Program-made: the position numbers and the translations under genes
NCBI GenBank assembly: GCA_001790095.1
Contig: MGBH01000001.1
Span: forward strand, 690,001-722,000
DNA from: Candidatus Saccharimonadota bacterium
Lineage (GTDB): Bacteria; Patescibacteriota; Microgenomatia; UBA1406; GWC2-37-13
Direction: 5' to 3'
Length of the DNA: 32,000 nt
The notes under the pieces: model-generated
Told to the model about the DNA's origin: nothing
Databases searched by the model: none
The model's input: the letters and a program-made list of their open reading frames with translations, nothing else
Part shown: piece by piece, positions 11,268 to 25,675 of the stretch
How positions within the stretch are numbered: the stretch's first letter is position 1
How the letters are laid out: every line of letters begins with the position of its first letter

Positions 11268-13505
11268 ATGAAAAAGAACGTCCCGCTTTTCGCAAAAAAA
11301 TCAATTCATAACTTTTTTGAGGCAACTCTTAATTTATTTCTTTTCTTTCCCTATTTTTTTTCCGTCTCTACCCTCTTTAAGACTTTTTTCCATCCTTGGA
11401 AAAATATAATTACCAAAAAGACTGTGCGGGGTTTTTCTTTTAGCGAGCTTATGGGGCGCATATTTTTTAATCTTGTCTCACGTCTCATCGGGGCTTTTAT
11501 GCGCCTTTCTATTATCCTTTTTTATATGTTGTTTCAGTCCCTGTATGTCATATTTCTTCCCTTTATCATTGGTGTCTATTTTCTTTTATTACCTTTTCTT
11601 ATATGTATATATATACTTGAGAAGACAGAGGAGGAAAAAAAAGCTTCTTTCAAAGCAGTGTTTATTGCATCCCGCATGTTAAAACAAGAAAACTACCAGG
11701 CAGTTGAGAATTGGTTTGAGATGTACTATCAAAAGTATCTGCACAAAAAGGCATGGTGGAAATTGTCCAACCTTTTGACCATACCACCCCTTGCACGAGA
11801 TTGGGCTGTAGGATACACTCCCCTTTTAGATGAGTTTTCGCAGGATTTGACCAATGATACTTATCAAGCCCAGATGAAAAGCGTCATTGGGCGGTCAAAA
11901 GAAATCCAGCAAATACAACAAGCTTTGTTAAAGAATGAGGAGGCAAATGTGCTCATAGTTGGTGAAGAAGGTGTTGGAAAGCATACGATAGTAGATGCCC
12001 TTGCAAAAAAAATTTATGAGGGTCAAACCAACTCTGTCCTTGCTTACAAACGCATTTTGAAATTAAATCTGGAAAAAATATTGACCGTTTATACCGATAC
12101 TGAACAAAGAGAGAATTTTCTTGAAGATCTATTTCTTGAAGCTGCAACCGCCAAAAACACTATTCTTCTTATTGAAAACTTTGACAAATACGTAAGTTTC
12201 GGACAAGGGAGAATCGATCTTTCAACTTCTTTTGAAAAATACGGAAAAACTAGCACAATTCAATTTATCGGCATCACGTCTCCTTTTTTTTACCAACGCT
12301 TCATATTTGGCAACGATAAAGTAAACCGGTTATTCACTCGCATAGATGTACAGGAAATCTCACTTCAAGAGGCAAAACTCACACTTCTTGAAGCAGCGCA
12401 TCTTTTTGAGGAAAAAAATAAGGCCATCATCCCCTATGAGACAATTATTGAAACTATCGATAAAAGTGAGTTCTATATAACCTATATTCCTTTTCCAGAA
12501 AAAGCGTTTAATCTCCTTGATATGGCTTGCGCTTATGTAAAAAATACCAATTCTCAGACCGTCACTCCAAACATAATAAATATAGTCCTTTCGGAGAAAA
12601 CCCATATCCCAACCTCTCTGACGGGTGAGATGAAGAAGAAACTTATTACATTAGAACAACTTCTTGGGTCCCGTGTCATATATCAAACCGAGGCGGTACA
12701 AAAACTGGCTGGGGCTATGCGAAGATCTTTCATACTACTTGGTAAGCGTAGAAAACCTCTGGCCAGTTTCCTTTTTCTTGGACCAACAGGTGTTGGAAAG
12801 ACCGAAACTGCAAAAGCACTTGCAGATATATTTTTTGGCAGTAATAAATTCTTACTTCGGTTTGACATGTCCCTTTATCAAACAACTGCAGATATAAAAA
12901 CACTGATTGGATCAATCGAATCAAGTATGCCGGGACTTCTCAGCAATGCAATACGGGAAAATCCATATGCCGTTCTCTTGCTTGATGAGATAGAGAAAGC
13001 AGACAAAGACCTTCTCAACATATTCTTAACATTGGTTGATGAAGGATACTTTACTGATGGATTCGGCAAAAAGGTAGATTGTAAAAACCTCATCATTATC
13101 GCAACGAGTAACGCTGGTGCCGATTATATTTATAAAAAACAAACCTCTCTAATTGCGTCGGTTAAAGAATCAGACCTCATAGATTATCTTGTCTCCCAGC
13201 ATCTTTTCTCTCCAGAATTCCTCAATCGCTTTGACGGTGTGGTAACATATCGCCCTGTCACTGAGCAATCCATCTTCACTCTCGCATCGAAGATGATTGA
13301 TACGATAAAAGAAACGATTTATAAGCTATATAAAATTCATATCACCGTCACTGATGAAACCTTGAAGAGTGTAGTTGCAAAAGGCTATAATCCTGCATTT
13401 GGTGCACGAAATCTTGAACGGGTTATCACCCAAGAACTGGAAGACAAGATAGCAAAGCTTATTCTTGAAGAAAAAGCGAAGGAAGGTGATACAATATCTT
13501 TATAA
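11268..13505 (+). CDS. Clp/Hsp100-family double AAA+ ATPase with a hydrophobic (membrane-anchor-like) N-terminal region
   Basis: In D1 the Walker A is GEEGVGKHT and the Walker B position reads ILLIENFD. In D2 the Walker A is GPTGVGKTE, the Walker B is VLLLDEIEKA, sensor-1 is ATSNAG, and FLNRFDG and GARNLERVI are also present. The first ~120 aa contain long hydrophobic stretches in place of a Clp N-domain. Confidence 0.8.
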   Translation: MKKNVPLFAKKSIHNFFEATLNLFLFFPYFFSVSTLFKTFFHPWKNIITKKTVRGFSFSELMGRIFFNLVSRLIGAFMRLSIILFYMLFQSLYVIFLPFIIGVYFLLLPFLICIYILEKTEEEKKASFKAVFIASRMLKQENYQAVENWFEMYYQKYLHKKAWWKLSNLLTIPPLARDWAVGYTPLLDEFSQDLTNDTYQAQMKSVIGRSKEIQQIQQALLKNEEANVLIVGEEGVGKHTIVDALAKKIYEGQTNSVLAYKRILKLNLEKILTVYTDTEQRENFLEDLFLEAATAKNTILLIENFDKYVSFGQGRIDLSTSFEKYGKTSTIQFIGITSPFFYQRFIFGNDKVNRLFTRIDVQEISLQEAKLTLLEAAHLFEEKNKAIIPYETIIETIDKSEFYITYIPFPEKAFNLLDMACAYVKNTNSQTVTPNIINIVLSEKTHIPTSLTGEMKKKLITLEQLLGSRVIYQTEAVQKLAGAMRRSFILLGKRRKPLASFLFLGPTGVGKTETAKALADIFFGSNKFLLRFDMSLYQTTADIKTLIGSIESSMPGLLSNAIRENPYAVLLLDEIEKADKDLLNIFLTLVDEGYFTDGFGKKVDCKNLIIIATSNAGADYIYKKQTSLIASVKESDLIDYLVSQHLFSPEFLNRFDGVVTYRPVTEQSIFTLASKMIDTIKETIYKLYKIHITVTDETLKSVVAKGYNPAFGARNLERVITQELEDKIAKLILEEKAKEGDTISL

Positions 13506-13506
13506 T

Positions 13507-14628
13507 ATGAAAGTCTACTTCACCGCTGCAACATCATTTAATGGAGAACTTCATGAAACGAACAAAAAGATTGTTCATTATATTCTTAAAAGTCGTGTGA
13601 TGCTTATCTCAGGTCAACAGATAGTAGATAAAAAGCTTCTGGAAGAAGATAAAAAACTTCCCTCTGAACAAATATATATGCGAGAACACCACCTGATTGA
13701 GCAGGCCGATCTTATCATAGCTGAGGCTTCAAGACCGTCTCTTGGTGTCGGAACAGAGATAGCATATGCTCTAAGTATAAATAAACCTGTTCTCATACTT
13801 ATCTCAACTCAGTATGAAGATCGGATCTCACCCATGATAAAAGGTAATCCATCAGAGACTCTTTATCTACAGTTCTATAATGAAGACAACCTCCATCTTA
13901 GGATAAGCGATTTTATCAAACATATTTCTTCTCTTAAAAAGAGACGGGGCAAACTAATTGTCATTGACGGGGCTGATGGATCAGGTAAAACAACACAGGC
14001 TGAGTTGTTAGTCCAGCATCTGAAAAAACAGCATGTCGCTGTTAAATATGTTGACTTCCCTCAGTATTATCATTCATTTCACGGAAAAACAGTTGCTAAG
14101 TTCTTAAGGGGAGAGTTTGGCAATATAAATCAAGTATCACCCTACCTTGCTTCACTTGCCTATGCGCTTGACCGAGCATCGATCAAGGGAGAAATGGATG
14201 ATTTTTTACTAAAGGGGGGTTATATTATTGCCAATAGATATGCAACATCAAGCATGGCTCATCAAGCTGCGAAATTTCAGGATGAGTCAGAGCGAAAAGA
14301 ATATTTGAAGTGGGAGTATGAACTTGAGTATAAAATCCATAAAATTCCCCGTGAAAATCTGGTTATTTACCTTTATGTACCATGGAAAATTAGCTTAGAG
14401 CTTACCAAAAAGAAGACAGACCGTGCATATCTTAAGGGTCAAAAACAAGATATCGCGGAAAAAGACCTTGCACACAGGATAGCATCAGAAAAAATGTATC
14501 AATACTTGGCTAAAAAATACAAGCACTGGGTCACTGTAAATTGTATCCATAATGGAAAACTAAGAAAAAAGGAGGATATCTTTGATGAAATAGTCCATAT
14601 CATCAATCCTCTTCCTTTTTCTCATTAA
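13507..14628 (+). CDS. tmk: Fusion protein: DNPH1/Rcl-like (nucleoside 2-deoxyribosyltransferase superfamily) N-domain + thymidylate kinase
   Basis: In the N-domain, EQADLIIAEASRPSLGVGTEIAYALSINKPVLIL aligns with the DNPH1 block QQADVVVAEVTQPSLGVGYELGRAVAFNKRILCL. The C-domain has the Tmk P-loop IVIDGADGSGKTTQ, and also LDRAS and ANRYATSS. The start ATG at 13507 lies 1 nt after the upstream TAA (13503-13505). Confidence 0.85.
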   Translation: MKVYFTAATSFNGELHETNKKIVHYILKSRVMLISGQQIVDKKLLEEDKKLPSEQIYMREHHLIEQADLIIAEASRPSLGVGTEIAYALSINKPVLILISTQYEDRISPMIKGNPSETLYLQFYNEDNLHLRISDFIKHISSLKKRRGKLIVIDGADGSGKTTQAELLVQHLKKQHVAVKYVDFPQYYHSFHGKTVAKFLRGEFGNINQVSPYLASLAYALDRASIKGEMDDFLLKGGYIIANRYATSSMAHQAAKFQDESERKEYLKWEYELEYKIHKIPRENLVIYLYVPWKISLELTKKKTDRAYLKGQKQDIAEKDLAHRIASEKMYQYLAKKYKHWVTVNCIHNGKLRKKEDIFDEIVHIINPLPFSH

Positions 14629-15255: not shown

Positions 15256-16254
15256 TTACTGTTTTCCCTGCACTATTGCACTTTTTGCAGGACCTCCATA
15301 AGGATATTCCAATCCTTTCCAATACCAACCATGAGGCATCACATGAAGCAACGATTGATATTCTTTTTGCATATGATCATGGAGAGATTGTAAATCCGTT
15401 GAAGATGGACTATCCGGTCGAAGCAGGAAAGGATCAAGAACTTTTACACCGATACTAAAATCTGATCTAACTCCCATAGCAAGCGGTAAAATAGTAACAG
15501 GACGCCCCGATGCAGTTGCATATTGTTGAGATGCTACAAAAATACCACCATGAAAAGGGGCTAATACTTCTACTGTCGTTTTAGAATTACCACCCTCAGG
15601 AAAAGCCACTACTACAGGTATTTGAGCAGACCTATTTTTATCAAATACTCGATTAACTCCTGCACTCAGTGCTTCAAACCCTCCCTGGCCTCCCTGACCA
15701 TAGGGAACAACAATTGAACCATCATTATCTTGTATAGTACTCATGGGGGGATCATCAAATTTAGCTCCAACAACTGAAAAACCAAAAGCTTGACCTGGTA
15801 AAAGTTGACTCAATATGGAATTTATTACTCCTCGTCTAGCAATAACACCCGGTAAATGAGCGGTTGTACCCTCTACTAGTTCACTTCTACCCAATTCATT
15901 AAGTGCATGTTGGAATTGAGCAGCGTCAGGCTTAATAGCTTTCTCAAATGGCGGATGGTTAGATATTATAACCACTGGTCCATCAAAATCAACACGCGCT
16001 AGTCGATCTCTTGCAGTTTCCAGAGATTCAACATCGACGGGAGCAATCTGACCAAACTCGGTAAAAAACTGTTGTTGAGCTGCCCTCAATCTAACAGCTA
16101 GATCTTGTGGACTGTCAACACAAGAGGCATAAGATGAGGCTATATAACGGGCAGTTGCATCAGTAAGTCTTCCTATACGTCCTTGCGCAATTGCATTTAT
16201 CTCTGCGACTCTTTGCGCTTCTGTTTTTGTTTTATCCATATAAAGGAATTTCAA
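15256..16254 (-). CDS. Hypothetical protein with PlsC/LPLAT-like acyltransferase blocks (tentative)
   Basis: VVIISNHPPFE (an NH block, but not a clean HX4D) and VVVAFPEGGNSKT (an FPEG block) suggest a glycerolipid-type acyltransferase fold. The protein is Lys-poor and Ala/Gln/Gly-rich, unlike its neighbours. The start could instead be the ATG at 16239. The stop lies 3 nt from the convergent dcd stop. Confidence 0.45.
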   Translation of the reverse strand: MKFLYMDKTKTEAQRVAEINAIAQGRIGRLTDATARYIASSYASCVDSPQDLAVRLRAAQQQFFTEFGQIAPVDVESLETARDRLARVDFDGPVVIISNHPPFEKAIKPDAAQFQHALNELGRSELVEGTTAHLPGVIARRGVINSILSQLLPGQAFGFSVVGAKFDDPPMSTIQDNDGSIVVPYGQGGQGGFEALSAGVNRVFDKNRSAQIPVVVAFPEGGNSKTTVEVLAPFHGGIFVASQQYATASGRPVTILPLAMGVRSDFSIGVKVLDPFLLRPDSPSSTDLQSLHDHMQKEYQSLLHVMPHGWYWKGLEYPYGGPAKSAIVQGKQ

Positions 16255-17014
16255 ACTCGTAAAAATCTATCAATTCCTTAAGTATTTTTTTTGCATGAAC
16301 AAGTCCGAAAATATTCTTCCCTGAAAACATGTGGTTTACCCCCTGAATCCTACTATATGTTGCAAATTTAGGATTTTTGAGTGATGAATATGCTAAAAGA
16401 GCGTCATTGATTGGTACGATTTCCTCCGCATAACCTTGGAGTACTTTAAAATAACCGGAGAAGTTTTCAAATTTCGATAAAATCCATTTCTTTGAAGGAT
16501 ATCCTCTCAGCACGGGAAGATTTTTTCTTTTTGTGGAAATCGCCGAACCAATCGCACAAAGTTTGACTACTTGAGGAAATTTTGAAGACAAAATTATTGC
16601 TAAAGTTCCTCCAAGGGAAAATCCAAGCGAATATATTTTGTTTATTTTTTTCGGAAACAATGTTCTTTTGGTTAAAATAAATTTGTAGACTTTTTCTACA
16701 TCATCTAGTTCCTGTCCAAACACTTTCCCCTGGAAAATCTCTTGCCAGTAGTTTAACCTCAAAGCAGGTATTATCTTGGGGTCTGGTTTTCTTGCGGTTT
16801 GATACCAGACGATATGGGGCCGCTCTTTCATGTTTTTTTGTAGCCAAAGAAGGATATGCTTATATCTATCTGTATCTCCAAATGCCTTTTCAAATGCTCC
16901 CCCATGCAAAATAAGTGCTGTTCTTGAACCAAGATTCCCTTGTTTTATATATACACATACTGGCAGTTTTTGATAAGTGCTGGTTAAATGAGAAATAATT
17001 ATTTTATTGCTCAT
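16232..17014 (-). CDS. Alpha/beta hydrolase (esterase/lipase-type)
   Basis: The GFSLGG nucleophile elbow (GxSxG) and the ALILHGG oxyanion-type block are present, along with late D/H candidates (NDAL..., GVNHMF). I took the start at MSNKII (17014). The listed ATG at 17056 would overlap the upstream gene by 53 nt. Confidence 0.7.
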   Translation of the reverse strand: MSNKIIISHLTSTYQKLPVCVYIKQGNLGSRTALILHGGAFEKAFGDTDRYKHILLWLQKNMKERPHIVWYQTARKPDPKIIPALRLNYWQEIFQGKVFGQELDDVEKVYKFILTKRTLFPKKINKIYSLGFSLGGTLAIILSSKFPQVVKLCAIGSAISTKRKNLPVLRGYPSKKWILSKFENFSGYFKVLQGYAEEIVPINDALLAYSSLKNPKFATYSRIQGVNHMFSGKNIFGLVHAKKILKELIDFYEFEIPLYG

Positions 17015-17975
17015 GGGAAGGAAAAAAAATAGGTAACATCTCTGGAAGTAGTTCATACTTTACACCGTTGTAATAGACATCAACAGTTGTGTTTCCTTTT
17101 TCGTCTCTTTTGAGTTTAAAATGAAGATATGAAAGGTAGTCTGGGGCACCGCCTACATCCATAAAAGACTGGATTGGTTCAACAGTGTCGCCATTTCTTT
17201 TACCCAACATGCCCTTTATGATTCCTGCAATATTAAAATCATGAGTTACTCCCATTATAAGTGTGCTCGTATTTGAGATTTGGTTTGGGAGGGTTCCGAG
17301 AACTAGACGTTTTAGATATTCAAGCGGATTTTGTATATATAATCGTACTTCTTCCGGATCAATAAACGTATCATATAGTGTAGATGCTATTTTCAAAGCC
17401 ATGTCTTTTGCAGTTTGGGGAGGAAAATGTCTTTCTAAAAGAGCCGGAAGAACAGAGTTGTCTGTTGCGATGGCTTTCTGAATAGCAGCCACCACAGCTT
17501 TATAATCCTGGCCATACTGATTACATAATGCGCTCATCTCTGAAGAAAGACCCCCACCTTCTTGAAAGATTTTCTCTCCTGCAGCTATTATTTTTTGATT
17601 ATTCCATTGCTTTCCATCTGGTCTTAACCTAAGAGTATTGTCAAACCCTTGCCCTTTTTCCGGTACTTGACCGGTCTTTTTAACCTTAGCAGTCAAACTC
17701 GCACCCTCATCGATAAGTTGTACCGTATGATGTGTTCTTGGTATTGAGGTTCCGGTAAAAAATATTCTGTCATAATGAGATTCAACATGATTTGAATGAA
17801 GGACTGATCTTCCCCATTCACGCGCGCGACCCATACCTTGTGCAGTTAATGCAGGAGACCGACGTTCAGCTATCATCTCAGGAGTCACGGGCTCCCTTTC
17901 AGCATGGCGGACAAAGATCACATCAATAAGAACATTTGTACCTCTTACACTCTCTTTTGCTTCTGGATGACCCAT
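17004..17975 (-). CDS. Histidine phosphatase superfamily protein (branch 1, PGAM-like)
   Basis: The catalytic RH(G/A)E block VIFVRHAERE is followed by PALTAQGMGRAREWG, TSIPRTHHTVQ and the later GVTHDFN. Confidence 0.7.
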   Translation of the reverse strand: MGHPEAKESVRGTNVLIDVIFVRHAEREPVTPEMIAERRSPALTAQGMGRAREWGRSVLHSNHVESHYDRIFFTGTSIPRTHHTVQLIDEGASLTAKVKKTGQVPEKGQGFDNTLRLRPDGKQWNNQKIIAAGEKIFQEGGGLSSEMSALCNQYGQDYKAVVAAIQKAIATDNSVLPALLERHFPPQTAKDMALKIASTLYDTFIDPEEVRLYIQNPLEYLKRLVLGTLPNQISNTSTLIMGVTHDFNIAGIIKGMLGKRNGDTVEPIQSFMDVGGAPDYLSYLHFKLKRDEKGNTTVDVYYNGVKYELLPEMLPIFFPSHEQ

Positions 17976-18006
17976 ATTAATATAATAAAATTGATCTTTG
18001 GAGCAT

Positions 18007-18015
18007 ATTATAGCA
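18007..18015 (-). promoter_or_regulatory. Extended -10 element TGCTATAAT (minus strand), internal to the udk operon
   Basis: The plus strand reads ATTATAGCA, which is TGCTATAAT on the minus strand. It sits in the 49-nt gap before the histidine phosphatase ATG (17975). Confidence 0.4.
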
Positions 18016-18024
18016 AATAATAAC

Positions 18025-20436
18025 TTAGCTTGTCTCTGTCATCTCTGTAAGATGCGCTACTGCTATATTAAGAAGTTTATAGGCTTCTTGGGTATTTGCT
18101 TCATATTGTATTTTTTCTTTCCCTCCATGCCCGTTAGCTTTGTTTTTATACAGTCGGTATAGAATCAGGTAGCGATACACCATAGATATTGCATCAATCG
18201 CTTGTATGCCTAGTTCTGCTTCTCTAACCTCAGATGCATCCATATCTTCAATTCCAATTCGGCTTCGGTATAGCCTATCATACTCACCCCAAAATGCTTC
18301 TGCTTCATCGACTTCTCCATGTACCAATAGGTCGGCATATAAAAAGGCCGCATCCATGCGTTTACTATTGATTCGCCAATCTACCCACGGTGCAACGTCA
18401 AGTATCTGAATTCCACCGTTTACTGCCATATTGTCCATTTTTATATCTCCATGCGCCATAATGGGTTCATGAAAACGGACCCCATACTCAGCAATCACTG
18501 AACCAAATCGGTTGAGGAAAGCTTCTATGGGTTGAGATAGTTCTTCAAGATATGCTGGTTCTTCTTTTAATCGATCACGTAAAATACCTATCTCTCCAGG
18601 TATTGGTTCTCTTCCCTGTATCCTTCCCCCTAATAAAAGTGAGCGGATAAATGTCTCCATTGATTCACCTTCTTCCAAATCAACCTCAGGACAAAACTCT
18701 GGATTAAAATGATAATCGATGATGTATCTTGCAACTTCCCGATATTGTTCTGATGTAGGACGTGCATTGAAACTTTCAGGATTTAGCCTGTCCATTTTAA
18801 TACCCACATCATGAAACCAACCATTCCAAAAATTTTCTGGCTTAGTGATCACTGCTACTGCATTGAGCGACTGTGCCAAAATTCCTAAGACATTTATTTC
18901 ATCTCTAATAAGACCTGTACGATATTCAGGATCACCTATAGGAATAAAATCCCATAGCTCTTTTTCCCTTTCACCTCCATGTAAATATTGTTTAACCACC
19001 TGACCTGGGTTATCAATCTCATGAAATGTTGAGGTTGCTCCTTGGAAATCAAGAGTCTGCCCCAAAGTTACTATCTCTATGGGGTTCTGAATCCTTATCT
19101 CCTCATATACTGCATTACACAGTTCATCAAAGTCTGCTACATCATCTTCTGTATATATTCTTGGGTCAGCATCTACGGGCAGTCTTTGTCCTCCTTTTTC
19201 CAAAGGTTTTTGAGCAAAATTCTGAGCTATTTTGATTGCTTCTCGCTCGCTAGCAAACTTATCAAAGACAGTGTAATCTCCACTCATAACTGCATGTCCA
19301 ATCAATCTAAATAGCTCTACTTGACTTAATGCATTTGAGACGAGAAGATTCCTAAGTGCCGTGTTGTTTGCAAAAAGTGGGTTTTGTAGTAAAAGTGTGT
19401 CTTGACGGTAAGCTTGCCATAATACTCTATATACGTCTGAATCAAGCTTCATTTCTTCTCCATTTCCATTTCCGTTTCCGTTACGAATAAGTTGTAATAT
19501 TTCCTCACGGTGTCCTGATACATGAAATGGCCTGTTTTGTGAGTATTGAGTCAGAAATAACCGTACAAGTGCTGCTTCTGGAGGAATAACCATATCAAGT
19601 ATGTCACCCGCCAAAGCAATATCAGCCGCCAATCTCAAACCCTCCAGTTCTTTGCCTGTTGTGTCTGCAAGAAGAGGTCTTAAGTCTTGTGCTAACTGTG
19701 CTAATTCTTCAGAAAATGTCGCTTCAAAAGCCGGATGTAATCCAATTGAGTTTTCACCCGGTGCTTTTTCAAGACGGGTAAGTTCAACTATATTTTTTGG
19801 CGAAAGTGTAAACTGGTTTAATGTTCCATTTAAAAGAAGACTGTTCAGGTCTTCAGTAGACTGTCCCTCTGCAGATATATCTCCACGAAGCGCCTCGGAA
19901 AATGAAAGTATATCATCGTGTCTTAACATCATCATGGCTGCACCGGCGCAGATTCTCTTTGCTTCAGGGAGCGGCAAACCATTTTCTACGGCGTATTGAT
20001 CAGCCAATGCAAGTATCATGGTTGCGGCACCTCTACCATGTCCTTTTTTTACATTTAACACCGATTGCTTATCCTGACCTCCTCTTAATTCATCCTCATT
20101 ACGTTGTATGCCTAAAAGTTGATCAGCATCATGAAGAGGACCAAACAAGGCAATGGAATCAAGCCAAGGAGTAATAAGCATTCTATTTTCCTGCGATAAA
20201 CCTCGTATAAGAAAATCTGTATGTTTCTGAACGTTTCTAATATGGAAACCATTATGGTCTTGGCTTTCTGGATTTTGAAGAGCTCTGGATAGTACGGGCA
20301 CTATGGGAAGAGGTGAGACACCATGACGATCAACTCTCTGGAGACTACCAAATAACGCAGCTGCTTTTCTTTTTGCTCCGCTCCACAGAGGACCAAATCT
20401 TTCACCTTGTTGTAGTTCTATTGTATTTCCTGCCAT
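18025..20436 (-). CDS. Fusion protein: HD-type phosphohydrolase-like N-domain + aminoglycoside/choline-kinase-fold (APH-like) C-domain
   Basis: The N-terminal third has an H...HD...H...D pattern (FHIRNVQKH, LFGPLHDADQ, GHGRGAA, LRHDDI). The C-terminal third has a kinase Lys strand (QVVKQY), the catalytic loop HGDIKMDN and the metal-binding ILDV...DAAFLYADL. A GNGNGNG linker lies between them. The ATG at 20434-20436 is 1 nt from the udk stop. Confidence 0.55.
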   Translation of the reverse strand: MAGNTIELQQGERFGPLWSGAKRKAAALFGSLQRVDRHGVSPLPIVPVLSRALQNPESQDHNGFHIRNVQKHTDFLIRGLSQENRMLITPWLDSIALFGPLHDADQLLGIQRNEDELRGGQDKQSVLNVKKGHGRGAATMILALADQYAVENGLPLPEAKRICAGAAMMMLRHDDILSFSEALRGDISAEGQSTEDLNSLLLNGTLNQFTLSPKNIVELTRLEKAPGENSIGLHPAFEATFSEELAQLAQDLRPLLADTTGKELEGLRLAADIALAGDILDMVIPPEAALVRLFLTQYSQNRPFHVSGHREEILQLIRNGNGNGNGEEMKLDSDVYRVLWQAYRQDTLLLQNPLFANNTALRNLLVSNALSQVELFRLIGHAVMSGDYTVFDKFASEREAIKIAQNFAQKPLEKGGQRLPVDADPRIYTEDDVADFDELCNAVYEEIRIQNPIEIVTLGQTLDFQGATSTFHEIDNPGQVVKQYLHGGEREKELWDFIPIGDPEYRTGLIRDEINVLGILAQSLNAVAVITKPENFWNGWFHDVGIKMDRLNPESFNARPTSEQYREVARYIIDYHFNPEFCPEVDLEEGESMETFIRSLLLGGRIQGREPIPGEIGILRDRLKEEPAYLEELSQPIEAFLNRFGSVIAEYGVRFHEPIMAHGDIKMDNMAVNGGIQILDVAPWVDWRINSKRMDAAFLYADLLVHGEVDEAEAFWGEYDRLYRSRIGIEDMDASEVREAELGIQAIDAISMVYRYLILYRLYKNKANGHGGKEKIQYEANTQEAYKLLNIAVAHLTEMTETS

Positions 20437-20437
20437 C

Positions 20438-21073
20438 TTATATCTTTCTTTTACTTTCTTTATATAACTGCTCTATCGTATGTATGATCATCTGTACTCC
20501 TATTCTATTGTTTCCTCCCTGCGGGATGATTATGTCAGCGTATTTTTTGTTTGGCTCAACAAACGCCAGATGCATGGGGCGTGACATGGTGACATATTGA
20601 TTGAGAGCATGTTCTAGAGTCCTCCCTCTTTCCTGTATGTCTCTTGTGATCTTTCTCCCAAGTCTTAAGTCTGCATCTGTATCTACAAATATTTTTATAT
20701 CCATAAGATTTCGAAGATCTTCATTTTCAAATATAAGAATGCCTTCGATGATAATGACCTTTTTTGGTGTTAATAAGACTGTTTCCTTTTTGCGATTTGA
20801 TATGGTGAAGTCGTATTGAGGCATCTCGATGGATGTGCCTGCAAGTAGTTTTTTTAGGTGTTTAACTAACAGTTTGGTATCAAGTGAGTTAGGATGATCG
20901 TAGTTAACTTTTGCCCTCTGTTCTAAAGTAAGATGAGATTGATCTTTATAATAATTGTCATGGGCGATGAAGATAACCTCATGTTTGAAGTGGTCTCTGA
21001 TTTTTTGGGTTACGGTTGATTTACCTGAACTCGTGCCTCCCGTTATACCAATGATCAGCGGTCTTTTTTTCAT
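20438..21073 (-). CDS. udk: Uridine kinase
   Basis: The blocks IIGITGGTSSGKSTV (P-loop), YDHPNSLDT, IIEGILIF and VDTDADLRLGRKITRDIQERGR are present. I took the start at the ATG at 21071-21073. The track's M at 21077-21079 is a TTG codon. Confidence 0.9.
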   Translation of the reverse strand: MKKRPLIIGITGGTSSGKSTVTQKIRDHFKHEVIFIAHDNYYKDQSHLTLEQRAKVNYDHPNSLDTKLLVKHLKKLLAGTSIEMPQYDFTISNRKKETVLLTPKKVIIIEGILIFENEDLRNLMDIKIFVDTDADLRLGRKITRDIQERGRTLEHALNQYVTMSRPMHLAFVEPNKKYADIIIPQGGNNRIGVQMIIHTIEQLYKESKRKI

Positions 21074-21162
21074 ATCCAAAAAAAATCCCTCCGATTCGGA
21101 GGGTTATTGTAATAGGCTATTTTCCTGCAGAAAATTGCTGCAAAAAATAGGGCTTCATCCAT
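21070..21162 (-). CDS. Candidate 30-codon leader ORF (uORF) of the udk operon
   Basis: The ATG at 21160-21162 is preceded by AAGGA with a 7-nt spacer. It translates to MDEALFFAAIFCRKIAYYNNPPNRRDFFWI. It reads through both arms of the hairpin, and its TGA (21070-21072) overlaps the udk ATG as ATGA. It is below the size cut-off of the ORF track. Confidence 0.3.
   Translation of the reverse strand: MDEALFFAAIFCRKIAYYNNPPNRRDFFWI
21078..21103 (-). promoter_or_regulatory. Intrinsic-terminator-like hairpin plus U8 tract immediately upstream of the udk ATG (candidate attenuator)
   Basis: The minus strand reads CCCTCCG-AAT-CGGAGGG-A-TTTTTTTT-GGAT-ATG. This is a perfect 7-bp GC-rich stem with a 3-nt loop and eight U residues. 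The 3' arm contains the only GGAGG in the leader. Confidence 0.55.
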
Positions 21163-21181
21163 AATTTTATCCTTAATATAT

Positions 21182-21209
21182 ATTATAACTTATAAAAGCT
21201 GAGAATCAA
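21182..21209 (-). promoter_or_regulatory. Sigma70-type promoter candidate (TTGATT-16-TATAAT, minus strand) for the udk operon
   Basis: On the minus strand, TTGATT lies at 21209-21204, followed by a 16-nt spacer and TATAAT at 21187-21182. This predicts a leader of about 100 nt. Confidence 0.4.
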
Positions 21210-21281: not shown

Positions 21282-21716
21282 ATGGATCAAAAAGAACAGC
21301 TTCCCCCTATTGTGCAAGGACACTCTCCTCAAGGACCTGAGAGACAAAGAAGTGTCTTAGAAGAAATCCGCTGCTTACGACATGCTTATTCTGATCAAAT
21401 ACCAAAAGATATCGTTCACAGCAATGGAGATAATCCGTACACAAAGGCGCGAAGAGGTTGGTGGACCGCACTGATTGGAAATCTGCAACTTGCAATGAGG
21501 ACAGGTGAGGTACAGGATGAAACGCTCATTGACCTTATCAAACGATTCTCTGCTTGGTATACTAATCCGCAACATCTTTCAAGTAAAGCTCTTACTACGG
21601 CAGATGATATCCGTCACGCTAATGCAATGATAACTATGGTACTAGGAGAAAAGGATGAGGTAAAGAAAAAGGAAGCCCTACAAGCGCTTTCATTTTTGTT
21701 TGATGAAAATGAATGA
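21282..21716 (+). CDS. Hypothetical protein (144 aa), no recognisable motif
   Basis: This is a clean ORF in an otherwise non-coding gap. TATAAT at 21270-21275 lies 6 nt before the ATG, giving a leaderless-type layout. Its composition is Lys-poor and Gln/Arg/Ala-rich compared with most genes here. Confidence 0.6.
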   Translation: MDQKEQLPPIVQGHSPQGPERQRSVLEEIRCLRHAYSDQIPKDIVHSNGDNPYTKARRGWWTALIGNLQLAMRTGEVQDETLIDLIKRFSAWYTNPQHLSSKALTTADDIRHANAMITMVLGEKDEVKKKEALQALSFLFDENE

Positions 21717-21758: not shown

Positions 21759-21841
21759 GCCGGGGTGTTGAAATGGCAGACAAGCAAGTCTCAAAAACTT
21801 GTGAGGGCAACCTCGTGAGGGTCCGACTCCCTCTCCCGGCA
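21759..21841 (+). tRNA. tRNA-Leu (anticodon CAA), class II, no encoded CCA
   Basis: The acceptor is GCCGGGG/TCCCGGC (one G-U pair). The anticodon arm is CAAGT-CTCAAAA-ACTTG. The long variable arm is GAGG-GCAA-CCTC. The T arm is GAGGG-TCCGACT-CCCTC. The discriminator A is followed by CTT. Confidence 0.85.
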
Positions 21842-21876
21842 CTTCGTCCCGCTAAAGCGGGACTTAGTGTGAACAC
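21842..21876 (+). repeat. Conserved tRNA 3'-trailer element, copy 2
   Basis: CTTCGTCCCGCTAAAGCGGGACTTAGTGTGAACAC differs from 11047-11080 by one inserted T in the loop and two substitutions. The substitution at 21871 (G for A) lies in the loop of the second hairpin, and the one at 21865 (T for C) lies in the linker between the two hairpins. Confidence 0.8.
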
Positions 21877-23630: not shown

Positions 23631-23652
23631 ACCATATGTATTATGCTATAAT
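23625..23652 (+). promoter_or_regulatory. Promoter candidate (TTGCAA-16-TATAAT with TG extension) for the 663-aa orphan gene
   Basis: TTGCAA lies at 23625-23630, followed by a 16-nt spacer and TGCTATAAT at 23644-23652. The ATG is at 23684. Confidence 0.5.
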
Positions 23653-23683
23653 ATTGTACTATAAGATAAATTGTCTATATTAT

Positions 23684-25675
23684 ATGGCATCACTTGAAGC
23701 AAGAGTCGCACAACTTACCGAGTTTAACTCCGAAAAAAGAGGAAGAGCAATACATACAATTGTTGAATCATGTATTACTGATGTATCTCACCTCAACGAA
23801 GCGCTTGGCATATTACCAAGCCTGCAAGGACCATATGTTGATAAAGTAACAGAAAGTCTTCGAAGAAAAACACACAAGGGCTTTAAAGAAGGTTCTTCAC
23901 CTCCTACAGTACAAGACATGGGGCTTATCATCGATTCGCTTAATGGACCACACGAACAAGTAATGCTTGATGCTTTAGGAGGATTGTTTGAAAGACCCCA
24001 ACAGCATTTTAATATACGCAAACCTACTCAGGATGCTTTCAAAAAAGCATACCCTATAGCAGTGCAGGTTTTTTCTTCTTTTGCTGAGGCAGTTGCAAAA
24101 TGTGAGGATCCTGAAAAAAAGGAAAAAATTCTTTCTATTTATCGAGATGCGGTTGTTCCAAGTAGAGATAGTAACGCTTTTTTTTCTTTTCAAATATTGA
24201 ACTATGGAATACCAGATATGCCGTATAACCTAGTTGAGAGAGCCTATGCAACAAAAGTGCTCTTAGACGCTGAAGAGATTCGTACGATCGGAGATATAAG
24301 CAAATTCTCCTTCACTCAAGATCAATTAGATACAATTGAACGTATCGAAAAAGCAGGTATTACTCATGGGAAATTTGAAACATCTCTTGCATACAAAGTT
24401 GCTTATCTTATCCATGAAGTATTAGATCCGTTAATTAAAGGAGACGAGAAACTTACTATTTTCTGTGCTGAACCAGAAGATGATCGATTTTGTGACTTTG
24501 CACTTGAACGGCGTACTAAACAAATGGCGATCTGGTTATCTAATAAATCTAAAGATGGAAAACAATTGAGGGGAGAAATTGTCCTCTTACCTGGAAAATT
24601 AAGAGCATTTACCGGGTACAGAAACGATGTGCATATCTCAGAAGTACGATCACTTCAAGCAGATCTTATGAAACAAAGAATAATAAATATGCGTTCTGAG
24701 GAAAAACCGCATAACCCCATTACTATGTCGGAGTTCAATACTGTTACTGATTATCTCTTACCTCCAATTGAAAATGTTGAGCAGTTAATAGATATTGAAA
24801 CTACGCAACAGATGAAAGAAAGAGCTCAGTGCGGCCTCTATTCACTCAGCCAAAGAGGTGCTCATATATCGTTTGATCATTCATCTGAACAGTTCCTCCA
24901 TGATGCCGGACTTGATCATCTTGTACTCAAACAGCTTACGCTTGGCCGCGCTCATAAAGCGTATGGGAAAAAGGTTGCCATACCTGAAGGTCGTGCTGAT
25001 GATTATTGTTATATTGCAGAATTTACTGTGCTTGGACAAAAAATGGCAGCAGTAATTGATGCTGATTTTAATTTTATTCCTCCTACTGGGCTCGGTTCTC
25101 ACGCTACTTCTTGGCTTGAACGAATATCTTTTGCCTATTTAGCTGATCTTCGCAATCTTGATGAATCTCAAGCAACTGAAGAAAATAGAAAAACATCATC
25201 TAGCGGTGAGATAAAATTCCTCGGAAGAACTGCATCGCTTCATGTACTACCCCTTGATGCACGGCCAACTATAGACGCGCAAACTGAAAGAGAGATCCGA
25301 AGACGATTTACTCATATCGGACATAAAGAGTTAAATAGACTTTTTACCTTAGTTCAAATTAATCGGGATTTCCTCGACACTATCCCCGAAAAATCAATAA
25401 GAGATCTTCTCAGTAAGCTACTGCAAAGAGTTCATAAAAAGGTTGTTGAAGGAAGACCTATGAAAAGCACGTGGACTGCAGGTGAAGAGGATACGTATGG
25501 GACAAGAATACCAAGCACCCATTTACAAGTTAATAATCCTCCTCATCCTGATACTTATTCACCACTATACAACTATTTTCAGATAGCCTATGTACCCGAA
25601 TCAGAAGCTGATCCAAATGCCCCCCCTATCCCATTTAATTGTCCCCATGCAGCAGCTAACATACTCCCAACATAA
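23684..25675 (+). CDS. Hypothetical protein (663 aa), no recognisable domain
   Basis: This is a long uninterrupted ORF. I took the start at MASLEARV (23684), downstream of the promoter. The listed ATG at 23636 lies inside the promoter. No catalytic or repeat motif is recognisable by eye, and there is no signal peptide or TM helix. Confidence 0.6.
   Translation: MASLEARVAQLTEFNSEKRGRAIHTIVESCITDVSHLNEALGILPSLQGPYVDKVTESLRRKTHKGFKEGSSPPTVQDMGLIIDSLNGPHEQVMLDALGGLFERPQQHFNIRKPTQDAFKKAYPIAVQVFSSFAEAVAKCEDPEKKEKILSIYRDAVVPSRDSNAFFSFQILNYGIPDMPYNLVERAYATKVLLDAEEIRTIGDISKFSFTQDQLDTIERIEKAGITHGKFETSLAYKVAYLIHEVLDPLIKGDEKLTIFCAEPEDDRFCDFALERRTKQMAIWLSNKSKDGKQLRGEIVLLPGKLRAFTGYRNDVHISEVRSLQADLMKQRIINMRSEEKPHNPITMSEFNTVTDYLLPPIENVEQLIDIETTQQMKERAQCGLYSLSQRGAHISFDHSSEQFLHDAGLDHLVLKQLTLGRAHKAYGKKVAIPEGRADDYCYIAEFTVLGQKMAAVIDADFNFIPPTGLGSHATSWLERISFAYLADLRNLDESQATEENRKTSSSGEIKFLGRTASLHVLPLDARPTIDAQTEREIRRRFTHIGHKELNRLFTLVQINRDFLDTIPEKSIRDLLSKLLQRVHKKVVEGRPMKSTWTAGEEDTYGTRIPSTHLQVNNPPHPDTYSPLYNYFQIAYVPESEADPNAPPIPFNCPHAAANILPT

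Follow-up and report, generated by a model that had tools for sequence, protein, structure and literature searches.

The operon described here lies on contig MGBH01000001.1 (assembly GCA_001790095.1), within a stretch of 32,000 nucleotides (positions 690,001 to 722,000, hereafter the window), and we read it, with a probability of about 0.6, as an attenuator-controlled accessory operon for nucleoside and nucleotide salvage in Candidatus Roizmanbacteria (Microgenomates). All five minus-strand open reading frames (ORFs) expected at 15256-21073 were found, closely packed head to tail: the uridine kinase gene udk, a gene for an 803-aa fusion protein, and the genes of a histidine phosphatase, an alpha/beta hydrolase and an acyltransferase-like protein (Table 1). 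This operon is real and conserved, beyond what chance would give. Its conserved core is made of udk, the fusion gene and the histidine phosphatase gene, and the hydrolase and acyltransferase genes are a lineage-specific addition outside this core. Three elements are new: a phosphodiesterase (PDE)-like N-terminal domain family (N-domain), its fusion to an APH-type kinase, and a conserved leader. The core enzymes would, we infer, add phosphate to, or remove it from, nucleoside- or pentose-derived substrates, with a flux that would feed or trim the pyrimidine/deoxynucleotide pool alongside the neighbouring dcd gene and a gene fusing nucleoside 2-deoxyribosyltransferase to thymidylate kinase (NDT-tmk). 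The leader, with a short upstream ORF (uORF), a U-rich tract and an intrinsic terminator, would control expression by coupling transcription to translation, as in Escherichia coli pyrBI: when UTP is scarce, RNA polymerase would stall in the U tract, the ribosome would catch up and mask the terminator, and the salvage genes would be read through. The original prediction, made from the letters of the sequence, rightly stated that no characterised pathway matches this gene set, and a literature search joining candidate phyla radiation, nucleotide salvage and uridine kinase turned up no paper.

Among 5.8 billion proteins, word-indexed searches returned five relatives of the 803-aa protein, three of the acyltransferase-like protein (in its 332-aa version) and one of the 323-aa phosphatase; when 1.84 billion representative proteins were searched exhaustively by profile, 176 relatives of the 803-aa protein emerged, and a search of GTDB species with a diverse alignment yielded two loci only. 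Among the best 150 of these 176 relatives, 101 are proteins of 480-740 aa that hold the N-domain only in the cases examined, and 32 are proteins of 300-400 aa that, again in the cases examined, hold the kinase only. Because each module occurs alone in relatives, the 803-aa protein is best described as a fusion of two independent modules that are elsewhere encoded separately; in L014 (loci are numbered as in Table 1) they are adjacent separate genes. All homologues with an organism name belong to the Microgenomates (Roizmanbacteria or Gottesmanbacteria). The recurrence of the gene order in related genomes, to which the original prediction had tied its claim, is borne out: the order of the 803-, 323-, 260- and 327-aa genes is kept in L004-L007 and L009, at 51-61% identity in the 803-aa protein, and in these three further lineages the block adjoins dcd, NDT/tmk and clpB. 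The more distant L008 (40% identity) carries udk, the fusion gene and the histidine phosphatase gene up to the contig end, and in L013 a phosphatase orthologue (8.5e-93) follows the fusion gene. Both of these loci share with the window a udk placed before the fusion gene (76-78% identity to the udk of the window), and the L004 group has the leader and then the fusion gene. The hydrolase and acyltransferase genes are confined to the window sub-clade of Roizmanbacteria; neither L013 nor any of the distant loci examined carries them.

In the usefully long loci recovered, the modules always lie in nucleotide-salvage or pyrimidine clusters, and no lipid-metabolism gene is present in the tabulated module loci (L010, L013, L014, L016-L019 and L022; Table 1). 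Because the relatives sit among nucleotide-recycling genes, we hold nucleotide salvage, rather than lipid remodelling, to be the most likely role of the operon. Among the neighbours, the NDT-tmk fusion (373-387 aa) is recognized by Pfam in both halves (6e-10 and 2.4e-15) and is 62-69% identical in L004, L007 and L013. A conserved protein of about 230-250 aa is encoded just upstream of the N-domain gene in L010 (1787-2539), L016 (6930-7628) and L019 (7407-8090); it has weak P-loop (AAA/nSTAND-like) matches and may be an unannotated nucleotide kinase.

The product of udk is certainly a uridine/cytidine kinase by its family matches: it is recognized by Pfam PRK (1.1e-43) and, over residues 3-208, by NCBIfam NF004018 (291.5 bits, cut-off 180) and TIGR00235 (261.9 bits, cut-off 220.3), and its P-loop GITGGTSSGKST is present. 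The four other window products gave only sub-threshold matches in the Pfam and NCBIfam searches, and they can be placed, at superfamily level only, from their relatives, their conserved catalytic residues and two AlphaFold models, which were built on alignments of 3-6 sequences. The earlier domain calls thus fared unevenly: udk is certain, the kinase, phosphatase, hydrolase and acyltransferase hold at superfamily level only, and the HD domain is weaker than had been stated. The motifs listed for these proteins are all there, and they are invariant in the family alignments.

Zero relevant Pfam or PDB matches were obtained for the N-domain, whether the window protein and five close relatives were searched against Pfam or single-sequence, profile and broad-alignment searches were run against the PDB. 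We regard it as a family not described before, with neither a Pfam family nor a solved relative. Its residues H61, H65, H102, D103, Q106, K130, H133, H173, D278, R292, R302 and R337 are invariant in 25 relatives (23-40% identity), as are D60 and N62 in alignments of eight and six sequences. Within this set, H61, H65, H102-D103, H133, H173 and D278 follow the H...HD...D metal-residue pattern of the HD/PDEase superfamily, and the six candidate metal ligands are kept together with K130, R292, R302 and R337. AlphaFold predicts an all-alpha domain (pLDDT mostly 60-90). No profile of the HD clan recognizes the N-domain of the window; HD-CE matched one of the 25 members (E 0.22), and a literature search on HD-CE/ParB-CE returned unrelated papers only. 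The N-domain is thus a putative HD/PDE-like phosphohydrolase, only provisionally placed in that superfamily: what stands of the "HD" call is an invariant motif pattern, and what does not is any significant profile match, the PDE matches being very weak. Two relatives deserve mention in their own right. P0095 (1136 aa) has a long C-terminal extension with HPLAV...HD...EISHDLVED motifs that recall RelA/SpoT-type HD hydrolases, for which Pfam gave no match at E <=0.01, and the N-domain gene of L016 (8704-10691; Gottesmanbacteria RBG_16_52_11) is split into two overlapping ORFs of 361 and 339 aa, by a frameshift or by an assembly error in this metagenome-assembled genome.

In the kinase half, K482, E513, D664, N669 and D680 are invariant in 24 sequences and the loop H662-G-D664-x-K-x-x-N669 is invariant or nearly so, which are the catalytic residues of PF01636. 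The window kinase itself gives no Pfam match. The APH profile matches two of six close and six of 24 distant relatives (E <=0.01 in the latter six), with the best score for P0026 (33.3 bits, cut-off 23.2); APH membership therefore holds through the relatives of the family, the window sequence alone being insufficient. The best PDB match by sequence profile is ribulosamine 3-kinase (6e-4), and the top Foldseek matches of the predicted structure are choline kinases (E 0.07, probability 1.0). The 323-aa protein scores 15.1 bits against His_Phos_1 (PF00300), under the cut-off of 21.7, and the same profile matches five of five family members (best 9.4e-6). Its RHG-type residues R23-H24-A25 (RHA), R80, H82 and H245 (VTHDFN) are invariant in five sequences, and phosphoglycerate mutase and phosphoserine phosphatase head its PDB profile matches (E 0.015-0.4). 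The canonical His_Phos_1 protein encoded beside the stand-alone kinase of L017 is not detectably of the same subfamily. Judging from the catalytic residues kept in the kinase, the phosphatase and the N-domain, these enzymes look active.

The two accessory proteins are recognizable in a similar manner. In the hydrolase, GFSLGG (Ser133 in the numbering of the 260-aa protein), D204 and H228 are invariant, in the order GxSxG, Asp, His; Abhydrolase_1 matches four of four members (best 1e-5; window protein 19.5 bits, cut-off 25.8), hydrolases of solved structure can be aligned over the Ser and His regions, and a PDB profile search retrieves alpha/beta hydrolases and esterases (3.6e-5). The Acyltransferase profile (PF01553) likewise matches four of four members of the 327-aa family, by motifs III-IV only (best 1.2e-3; 18.9 bits, cut-off 23). 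Invariant here are NHPPFEK 94-100, ARR 134-136, FPEGG 213-217 and P252, and motifs III/IV (FPEGG 213-217 and VT-x-LP-x-x-MGV) go along with a predicted LPLAT fold. Motif I, N94-H95-P-P-F/Y-E99-K100, is HX3E and neither HX4D nor HX4E, in agreement with the reservation made at the outset that the NH block is not a clean HX4D.

The original prediction had proposed for this gene set a module that salvages or remodels host-derived phospholipid or a nucleoside-linked head-group by deacylation, re-acylation, phosphorylation and dephosphorylation. Spelled out, the esterase would deacylate, the PlsC-like enzyme would re-acylate lysolipids, the choline-kinase-like domain would phosphorylate a head-group alcohol, the HD and histidine phosphatases would dephosphorylate and udk would provide CTP precursors for head-group activation. 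To our knowledge, candidate-phyla-radiation bacteria lack de novo lipid synthesis, which counts in favour of such a module. So do the best Foldseek matches of the acyltransferase model (pLDDT 66, pTM 0.70), which are Thermotoga maritima PlsC 5kym (2.6e-4, probability 1.0) and LpxM 5kn7 (1e-3), the choline kinases matched by the kinase model, the monoacylglycerol lipases and esterases matched by the hydrolase, and the overlaps of the three distal genes, which suggest translational coupling. However, the kinase, N-domain and phosphatase stand with nucleotide genes in all informative loci, never with lipid genes, and in L013 the core is part of a pyr operon from which the hydrolase and acyltransferase genes are missing. 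The choline-kinase matches are generic to APH folds, and the sequence profile favours fructosamine/ribulosamine kinases; the acyltransferase has the HX3E motif I, its two N-terminal helices are polar by reading of the sequence, and no obvious hydrophobic segment was seen by eye in the operon products (no prediction program was run). We thus hold lipid remodelling to be very unlikely as the role of the operon; only the sub-clade-specific esterase and acyltransferase stay compatible with it, and an annotation that was tempting but is unsupported has now been removed.

The coordinates of the junctions confirm that a single nucleotide separates the udk stop (20438-20440) from the start codon of the 803-aa gene (ATG, 20434-20436), that 49 nt (17976-18024) lie between the 803- and 323-aa genes, and that 11 nt (17004-17014) are shared by the 323-aa and hydrolase genes. 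The second overlap had been given as 23 nt (16232-16254) by assuming an upstream TTG; the acyltransferase start backed by public gene calls and homologue alignments is the ATG at 16239, which leaves 8 nt (16232-16239). The sequence element noticed earlier in the 49-nt gap is indeed there, at 18015-18007: it is an extended -10 element, TGCTATAAT, aligned as CTATTTGnTATAATrT in L004 and L007 and as TATAAT in L009, so that a TGnTATAAT element is kept in four lineages; L008 and L013, whose gap measures 4-16 nt, lack it. This conserved element is probably an internal promoter for the phosphatase, hydrolase and acyltransferase genes. Its existence would suit an account in which two unrelated units are merely juxtaposed and share a transcript only, namely a nucleotide unit (udk, fusion gene, phosphatase) and an independent esterase/acyltransferase pair; the distal pair is specific to the sub-clade, and the hydrolase has a genome-typical composition, unlike its neighbours. 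Yet the internal promoter lies upstream of the phosphatase gene and not of the esterase gene, the phosphatase/esterase/acyltransferase overlaps of 11 and 8 nt occur in all four sub-clade lineages, and the cargo of another copy of the leader (L021, below) likewise joins a nucleotide hydrolase, an acyltransferase and an acyl-hydrolase. We therefore consider mere juxtaposition to be decidedly improbable.

The leader recurs as well. A uORF of 30 codons (MDEALFFAAIFCRKIAYYNNPPNRRDFFWI*), with its own AAGGA Shine-Dalgarno sequence, crosses the terminator and ends in a TGA that shares an ATGA with the start codon of udk. In seven of the seven leaders found there is an ORF with this start context; it ends at the udk ATG in the window and L008, and 0-5 nt before the terminator stem in L004, L007 and L009. 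The leader precedes udk in the window and L008, and directly precedes the fusion gene in L004, L007 and L009; the copies in L020 and L021 came from a pattern scan of JGI metagenomes. All seven leaders have the pyrBI-type architecture of uORF, U-tract hairpin and terminator. In the RNAalifold consensus of these leaders, the pairs of hairpin 1 are mostly conserved or changed on one side, and L008 breaks several; the terminator is kept in all seven, two of its stem pairs showing compensatory changes. Upstream, a sigma-70-like promoter (10/12 consensus) aligns with TTGAC...TATAAT/TATAGAAT elements in L008, L004, L020 and L021; promoter-like matches over the region are no more frequent than in shuffled sequence, so this call is supported by conservation and not by the scan. 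The leader belongs to no Rfam family at gathering thresholds, and relaxed thresholds gave chance-level matches to Phe, His and PyrR leaders. An antiterminator pairing of hairpin 1 with the terminator was considered and rejected, as inspection of the sequences revealed no complementarity.

Downstream of the leader, the cargo at the DUF2207/dcd site is not always the same. In L021 (1372-3513), where DUF2207 and dcd flank it, the cargo consists of two proteins, a Ham1-like + GNAT protein of 585 aa and then an ASCH protein of 128 aa; in L020 (4489-5562) it is an unrelated protein of >358 aa. The ASCH family includes YqfB, an N4-acetylcytidine amidohydrolase (PMC6972931), so that the L021 cargo is again nucleotide-related; it also joins a nucleotide hydrolase, an acyltransferase and an acyl-hydrolase. 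The site thus acts like a slot filled by differing nucleotide-related cassettes. A tRNA-Leu(CAA) gene was called by ARAGORN next to the leader (Rfam at gathering threshold gave only the two other tRNAs of the window), and in L004 and L007 the leader is immediately preceded by tRNA-like sequence; the variable site can thus be said to adjoin a tRNA gene. One might go further and propose that, in Roizmanbacteria, the site between tRNA-Leu/DUF2207 and dcd is a UTP-sensing slot under attenuator control, in which interchangeable non-homologous cassettes would recycle pyrimidine nucleosides and nucleotides that are scavenged from a host and carry modifications or acyl groups, for instance of the N4-acetylcytidine type. 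The cassette of the window (PDE-like HD-APH kinase fusion, histidine phosphatase, alpha/beta hydrolase, LPLAT-fold acyltransferase) and that of L021 (Ham1-type NTP pyrophosphatase-GNAT fusion, then ASCH amidohydrolase) would be parallel in that each brings together a nucleotide phosphohydrolase, an acyltransferase and an acyl-hydrolase. We rate this extension as improbable; if it were true, the N-domain would be a new nucleotide-processing enzyme family at a conserved position in Microgenomates salvage operons.

The same variability could also point to an island-like cassette at a hot spot beside tRNA-Leu, whose enzymes would modify or inactivate some small molecule, for instance a toxin or a nucleoside antibiotic. 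The differing cargo behind one leader and the tRNA-like sequences fit this account, as do the APH, GNAT, esterase and acyltransferase folds, which are typical of drug-modifying enzymes, the faster evolution of the fusion gene (40-42% identity, against 76-78% for udk and 62% for NDT-tmk; with L013 alone, 40% against 78% and 62%) and the amino-acid composition of three of the proteins, which is atypical for the genome. The 803-, 323- and 327-aa products have a K/(K+R) of 0.35-0.53 and a first-position GC of 0.55-0.61 in their genes; for the hydrolase, udk and most neighbours the values are about 0.7-0.8 and 0.39-0.50. The patchy composition reported at first is therefore found at the protein level, but the G+C counts of single lines had exaggerated the nucleotide contrast, since the odd genes have little G+C at third codon positions (0.20-0.29); bulk GC across the operon stays within a narrow range (0.36-0.43). 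Moreover, the Lys-poor composition is family-wide (median K/(K+R) 0.45 in stand-alone N-domain proteins, n=103, and 0.41 in stand-alone kinases) and is kept in loci spanning 37% to 53% GC. It is thus a family trait and no evidence for recent transfer: this family-wide occurrence and a third-position GC that is host-like or lower argue against recent horizontal transfer as the source of the odd composition, and we rejected it. With named relatives from Microgenomates only, the alternative first offered, of a horizontally acquired cassette, is likewise left without support. There are, in addition, no integrase, repeats or mobility genes at the site, and the stand-alone N-domain gene sits mid-way in long housekeeping salvage operons (L016, L019), so that an island-like cassette appears unlikely to us. 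As a separate observation, the ORFs at 21282-21716 (+, 144 aa) and 23636-25675 (+, 679 aa), which have no Pfam family, are Lys-poor and acidic like the odd genes of the operon (K/(K+R) 0.50-0.51) and are confined to this genome among the loci fetched.

Several points weigh against the reading as an accessory salvage operon. The association by neighbourhood comes from about eight independent neighbourhoods, several of them short contigs, and L012 has just a lysyl-tRNA synthetase gene beside the kinase. The window proteins other than udk are all under Pfam gathering thresholds and have no known substrate; both AlphaFold models are mediocre (pLDDT 66-69), with the kinase N-lobe unmodelled. The HD/PDE call draws on the motif pattern and on one of the 25 members matching PDEase_I (E 0.008), and the Foldseek matches of the N-domain to PDE4 are weak (E >1, probability <=0.07). 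Covariation in the leader is limited, with double changes in three of 18 pairs, and the leader could act by a different mechanism. Lastly, the esterase and the acyltransferase have no obvious part in classical nucleotide salvage.

With their minimal genomes, candidate-phyla-radiation bacteria are generally regarded as living on nucleotides, lipids and cofactors taken from other cells. The locus exposes an N-domain with about 100 clusters at 50% identity and a fixed place in Microgenomates nucleotide-salvage operons, which in Roizmanbacteria is fused to a kinase and has a histidine phosphatase as partner. Its reaction, once identified, would close a gap in metabolic reconstructions of candidate-phyla-radiation bacteria, and the leader is a predicted example of leader-peptide attenuation in this radiation that would link the operon to pyrimidine supply.

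Table 1. Features of the udk-led operon and its leader in the window, copies of the leader, and gene content of module loci
Feature	Position	Strand	Description
udk	20438-21073 (ORF to 21079)	-	211 aa
Fusion gene	18025-20436	-	803 aa
N-domain of 803-aa protein (about aa 1-450)	19087-20436	-	all-helical (predicted), PDE-like HD metal-site pattern
Kinase half of 803-aa protein (about aa 451-803)	18025-19086	-	APH/choline-kinase/fructosamine-kinase type (predicted)
Histidine phosphatase gene	17004-17975	-	323 aa; divergent branch 1 histidine-phosphatase superfamily protein with insertion of about 150 aa
Alpha/beta hydrolase gene	16232-17014	-	260 aa from ATG at 17014; 16232-17056 gives 274 aa
LPLAT-fold acyltransferase-like gene	15256-16239	-	327 aa from ATG at 16239; 15256-16254 gives 332 aa from TTG
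Sigma-70-like promoter	21182-21209	-	TTGATT, 16-nt spacer, TATAAT
Leader uORF	21070-21162	-	30 codons
Leader hairpin 1	21117-21150	-	stem up to 13 bp, U-rich loop, within uORF
Intrinsic terminator, putative attenuator	21078-21103	-	CCCTCCG-AAT-CGGAGGG + T8, 4 nt upstream of udk ATG
Extended -10 element	18007-18015	-	in 49-nt gap; probable internal promoter for the three distal genes
NDT-tmk fusion gene	13465-14628	+	nucleoside 2-deoxyribosyltransferase + thymidylate kinase
tRNA-Leu(CAA)	21759-21842	+	called by ARAGORN
Leader copy, window	21070-21209	-	
Leader copy, L008	1085-1232		
Leader copy, L004	9860-10003		
Leader copy, L009	425-556		
Leader copy, L007	135-262		
Leader copy, L020	4424-4518		
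Leader copy, L021	1313-1405		
Module locus, window			dcd + NDT-tmk directly downstream of operon
Module locus, L013			carB, pyrC, pyrD, pyrE, pyrF, udk, fusion gene, phosphatase, beside NDT/tmk; hydrolase and acyltransferase missing
Module locus, L014			N-domain gene, kinase, dNK, dcd
Module locus, L010			tmk, tdk, PNP/UDP phosphorylase, His_Phos fragments, N-domain gene, glyA
Module locus, L016 (Gottesmanbacteria)			dNK, HAD, tmk (two copies), tdk, PNP, N-domain gene, adenosine deaminase, IMPDH, glyA
Module locus, L019			L016 set + guaA
Module loci, L017/L018			udk-like gene, kinase, canonical His_Phos_1
Module locus, L022			kinase near dcd

The individual components resemble known systems in part. 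Like class I PDEs and HD phosphohydrolases (e.g. the YfbR 5'-deoxynucleotidase and dNTP triphosphohydrolases), the N-domain has a predicted all-helical fold and a nucleotide-metabolism context, and its D-H-N-x-x-H, followed by H-D 37 residues on and then by a distal Asp, parallels what we take to be the metal site of PDE4 (H160/H164, H200-D201 and D318); its extra invariant Lys and Arg residues would suit phosphate binding. It differs in having HDxDQ in place of the HDxxH of PDEs, two further invariant His (H133, H173) and a conserved TQYSxxRPF motif, in its size (about 400 aa), in its fusion to a kinase in the Roizmanbacteria lineage and in lacking a significant profile match to Pfam HD-clan families or PDB sequences. 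The kinase half shares with the APH/choline/fructosamine-3-kinase family (PF01636, PF03881) the catalytic Lys and Glu, the HGDxKxxN loop and the metal-binding Asp; some of its relatives pass the APH threshold, and choline kinases are its best structural matches. Its genetic links, however, are consistently to udk, dcd, dNK and a histidine phosphatase, and not to antibiotic, choline or glycation contexts. The 327-aa protein resembles the PlsC/LpxM LPLAT enzymes in its predicted fold, to which two long N-terminal helices like those of T. maritima PlsC belong, and in motifs II-IV (ARR, FPEGG, V-x-x-L-P), but has NHPPFEK (HX3E) as motif I where these have HX4D/E, N-terminal helices that are polar and soluble-looking, not membrane-embedding, and a very small family, with only about five homologues among the 5.8 billion proteins.

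The genetic coupling of a kinase to a branch-1 histidine phosphatase is reminiscent of PFK-2/FBPase-2 and, by this analogy, suggests opposing phosphorylation and dephosphorylation of one metabolite. The kinase fold is protein-kinase-like here and of the P-loop type there, the pair of the operon consists of separate polypeptides, with an insertion of about 150 aa in the phosphatase, and there is no sequence relationship past superfamily level. As to regulation, E. coli pyrBI and pyrE are, as Turnbough and Switzer are said to have set out in Microbiol Mol Biol Rev in 2008, controlled by UTP-sensitive, translation-coupled attenuation. Our leader has no sequence similarity to theirs, its U tract sits in a hairpin loop, and the genes that it precedes, in a candidate-phyla-radiation host, are not biosynthetic but belong to salvage or house-cleaning. 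Nevertheless, a leader ORF reaching or crossing an intrinsic terminator, a U-rich tract and hairpin upstream of this terminator and pyrimidine-metabolism genes downstream are features common to both, and the leader thus resembles pyrBI-type attenuation and may likewise sense UTP.

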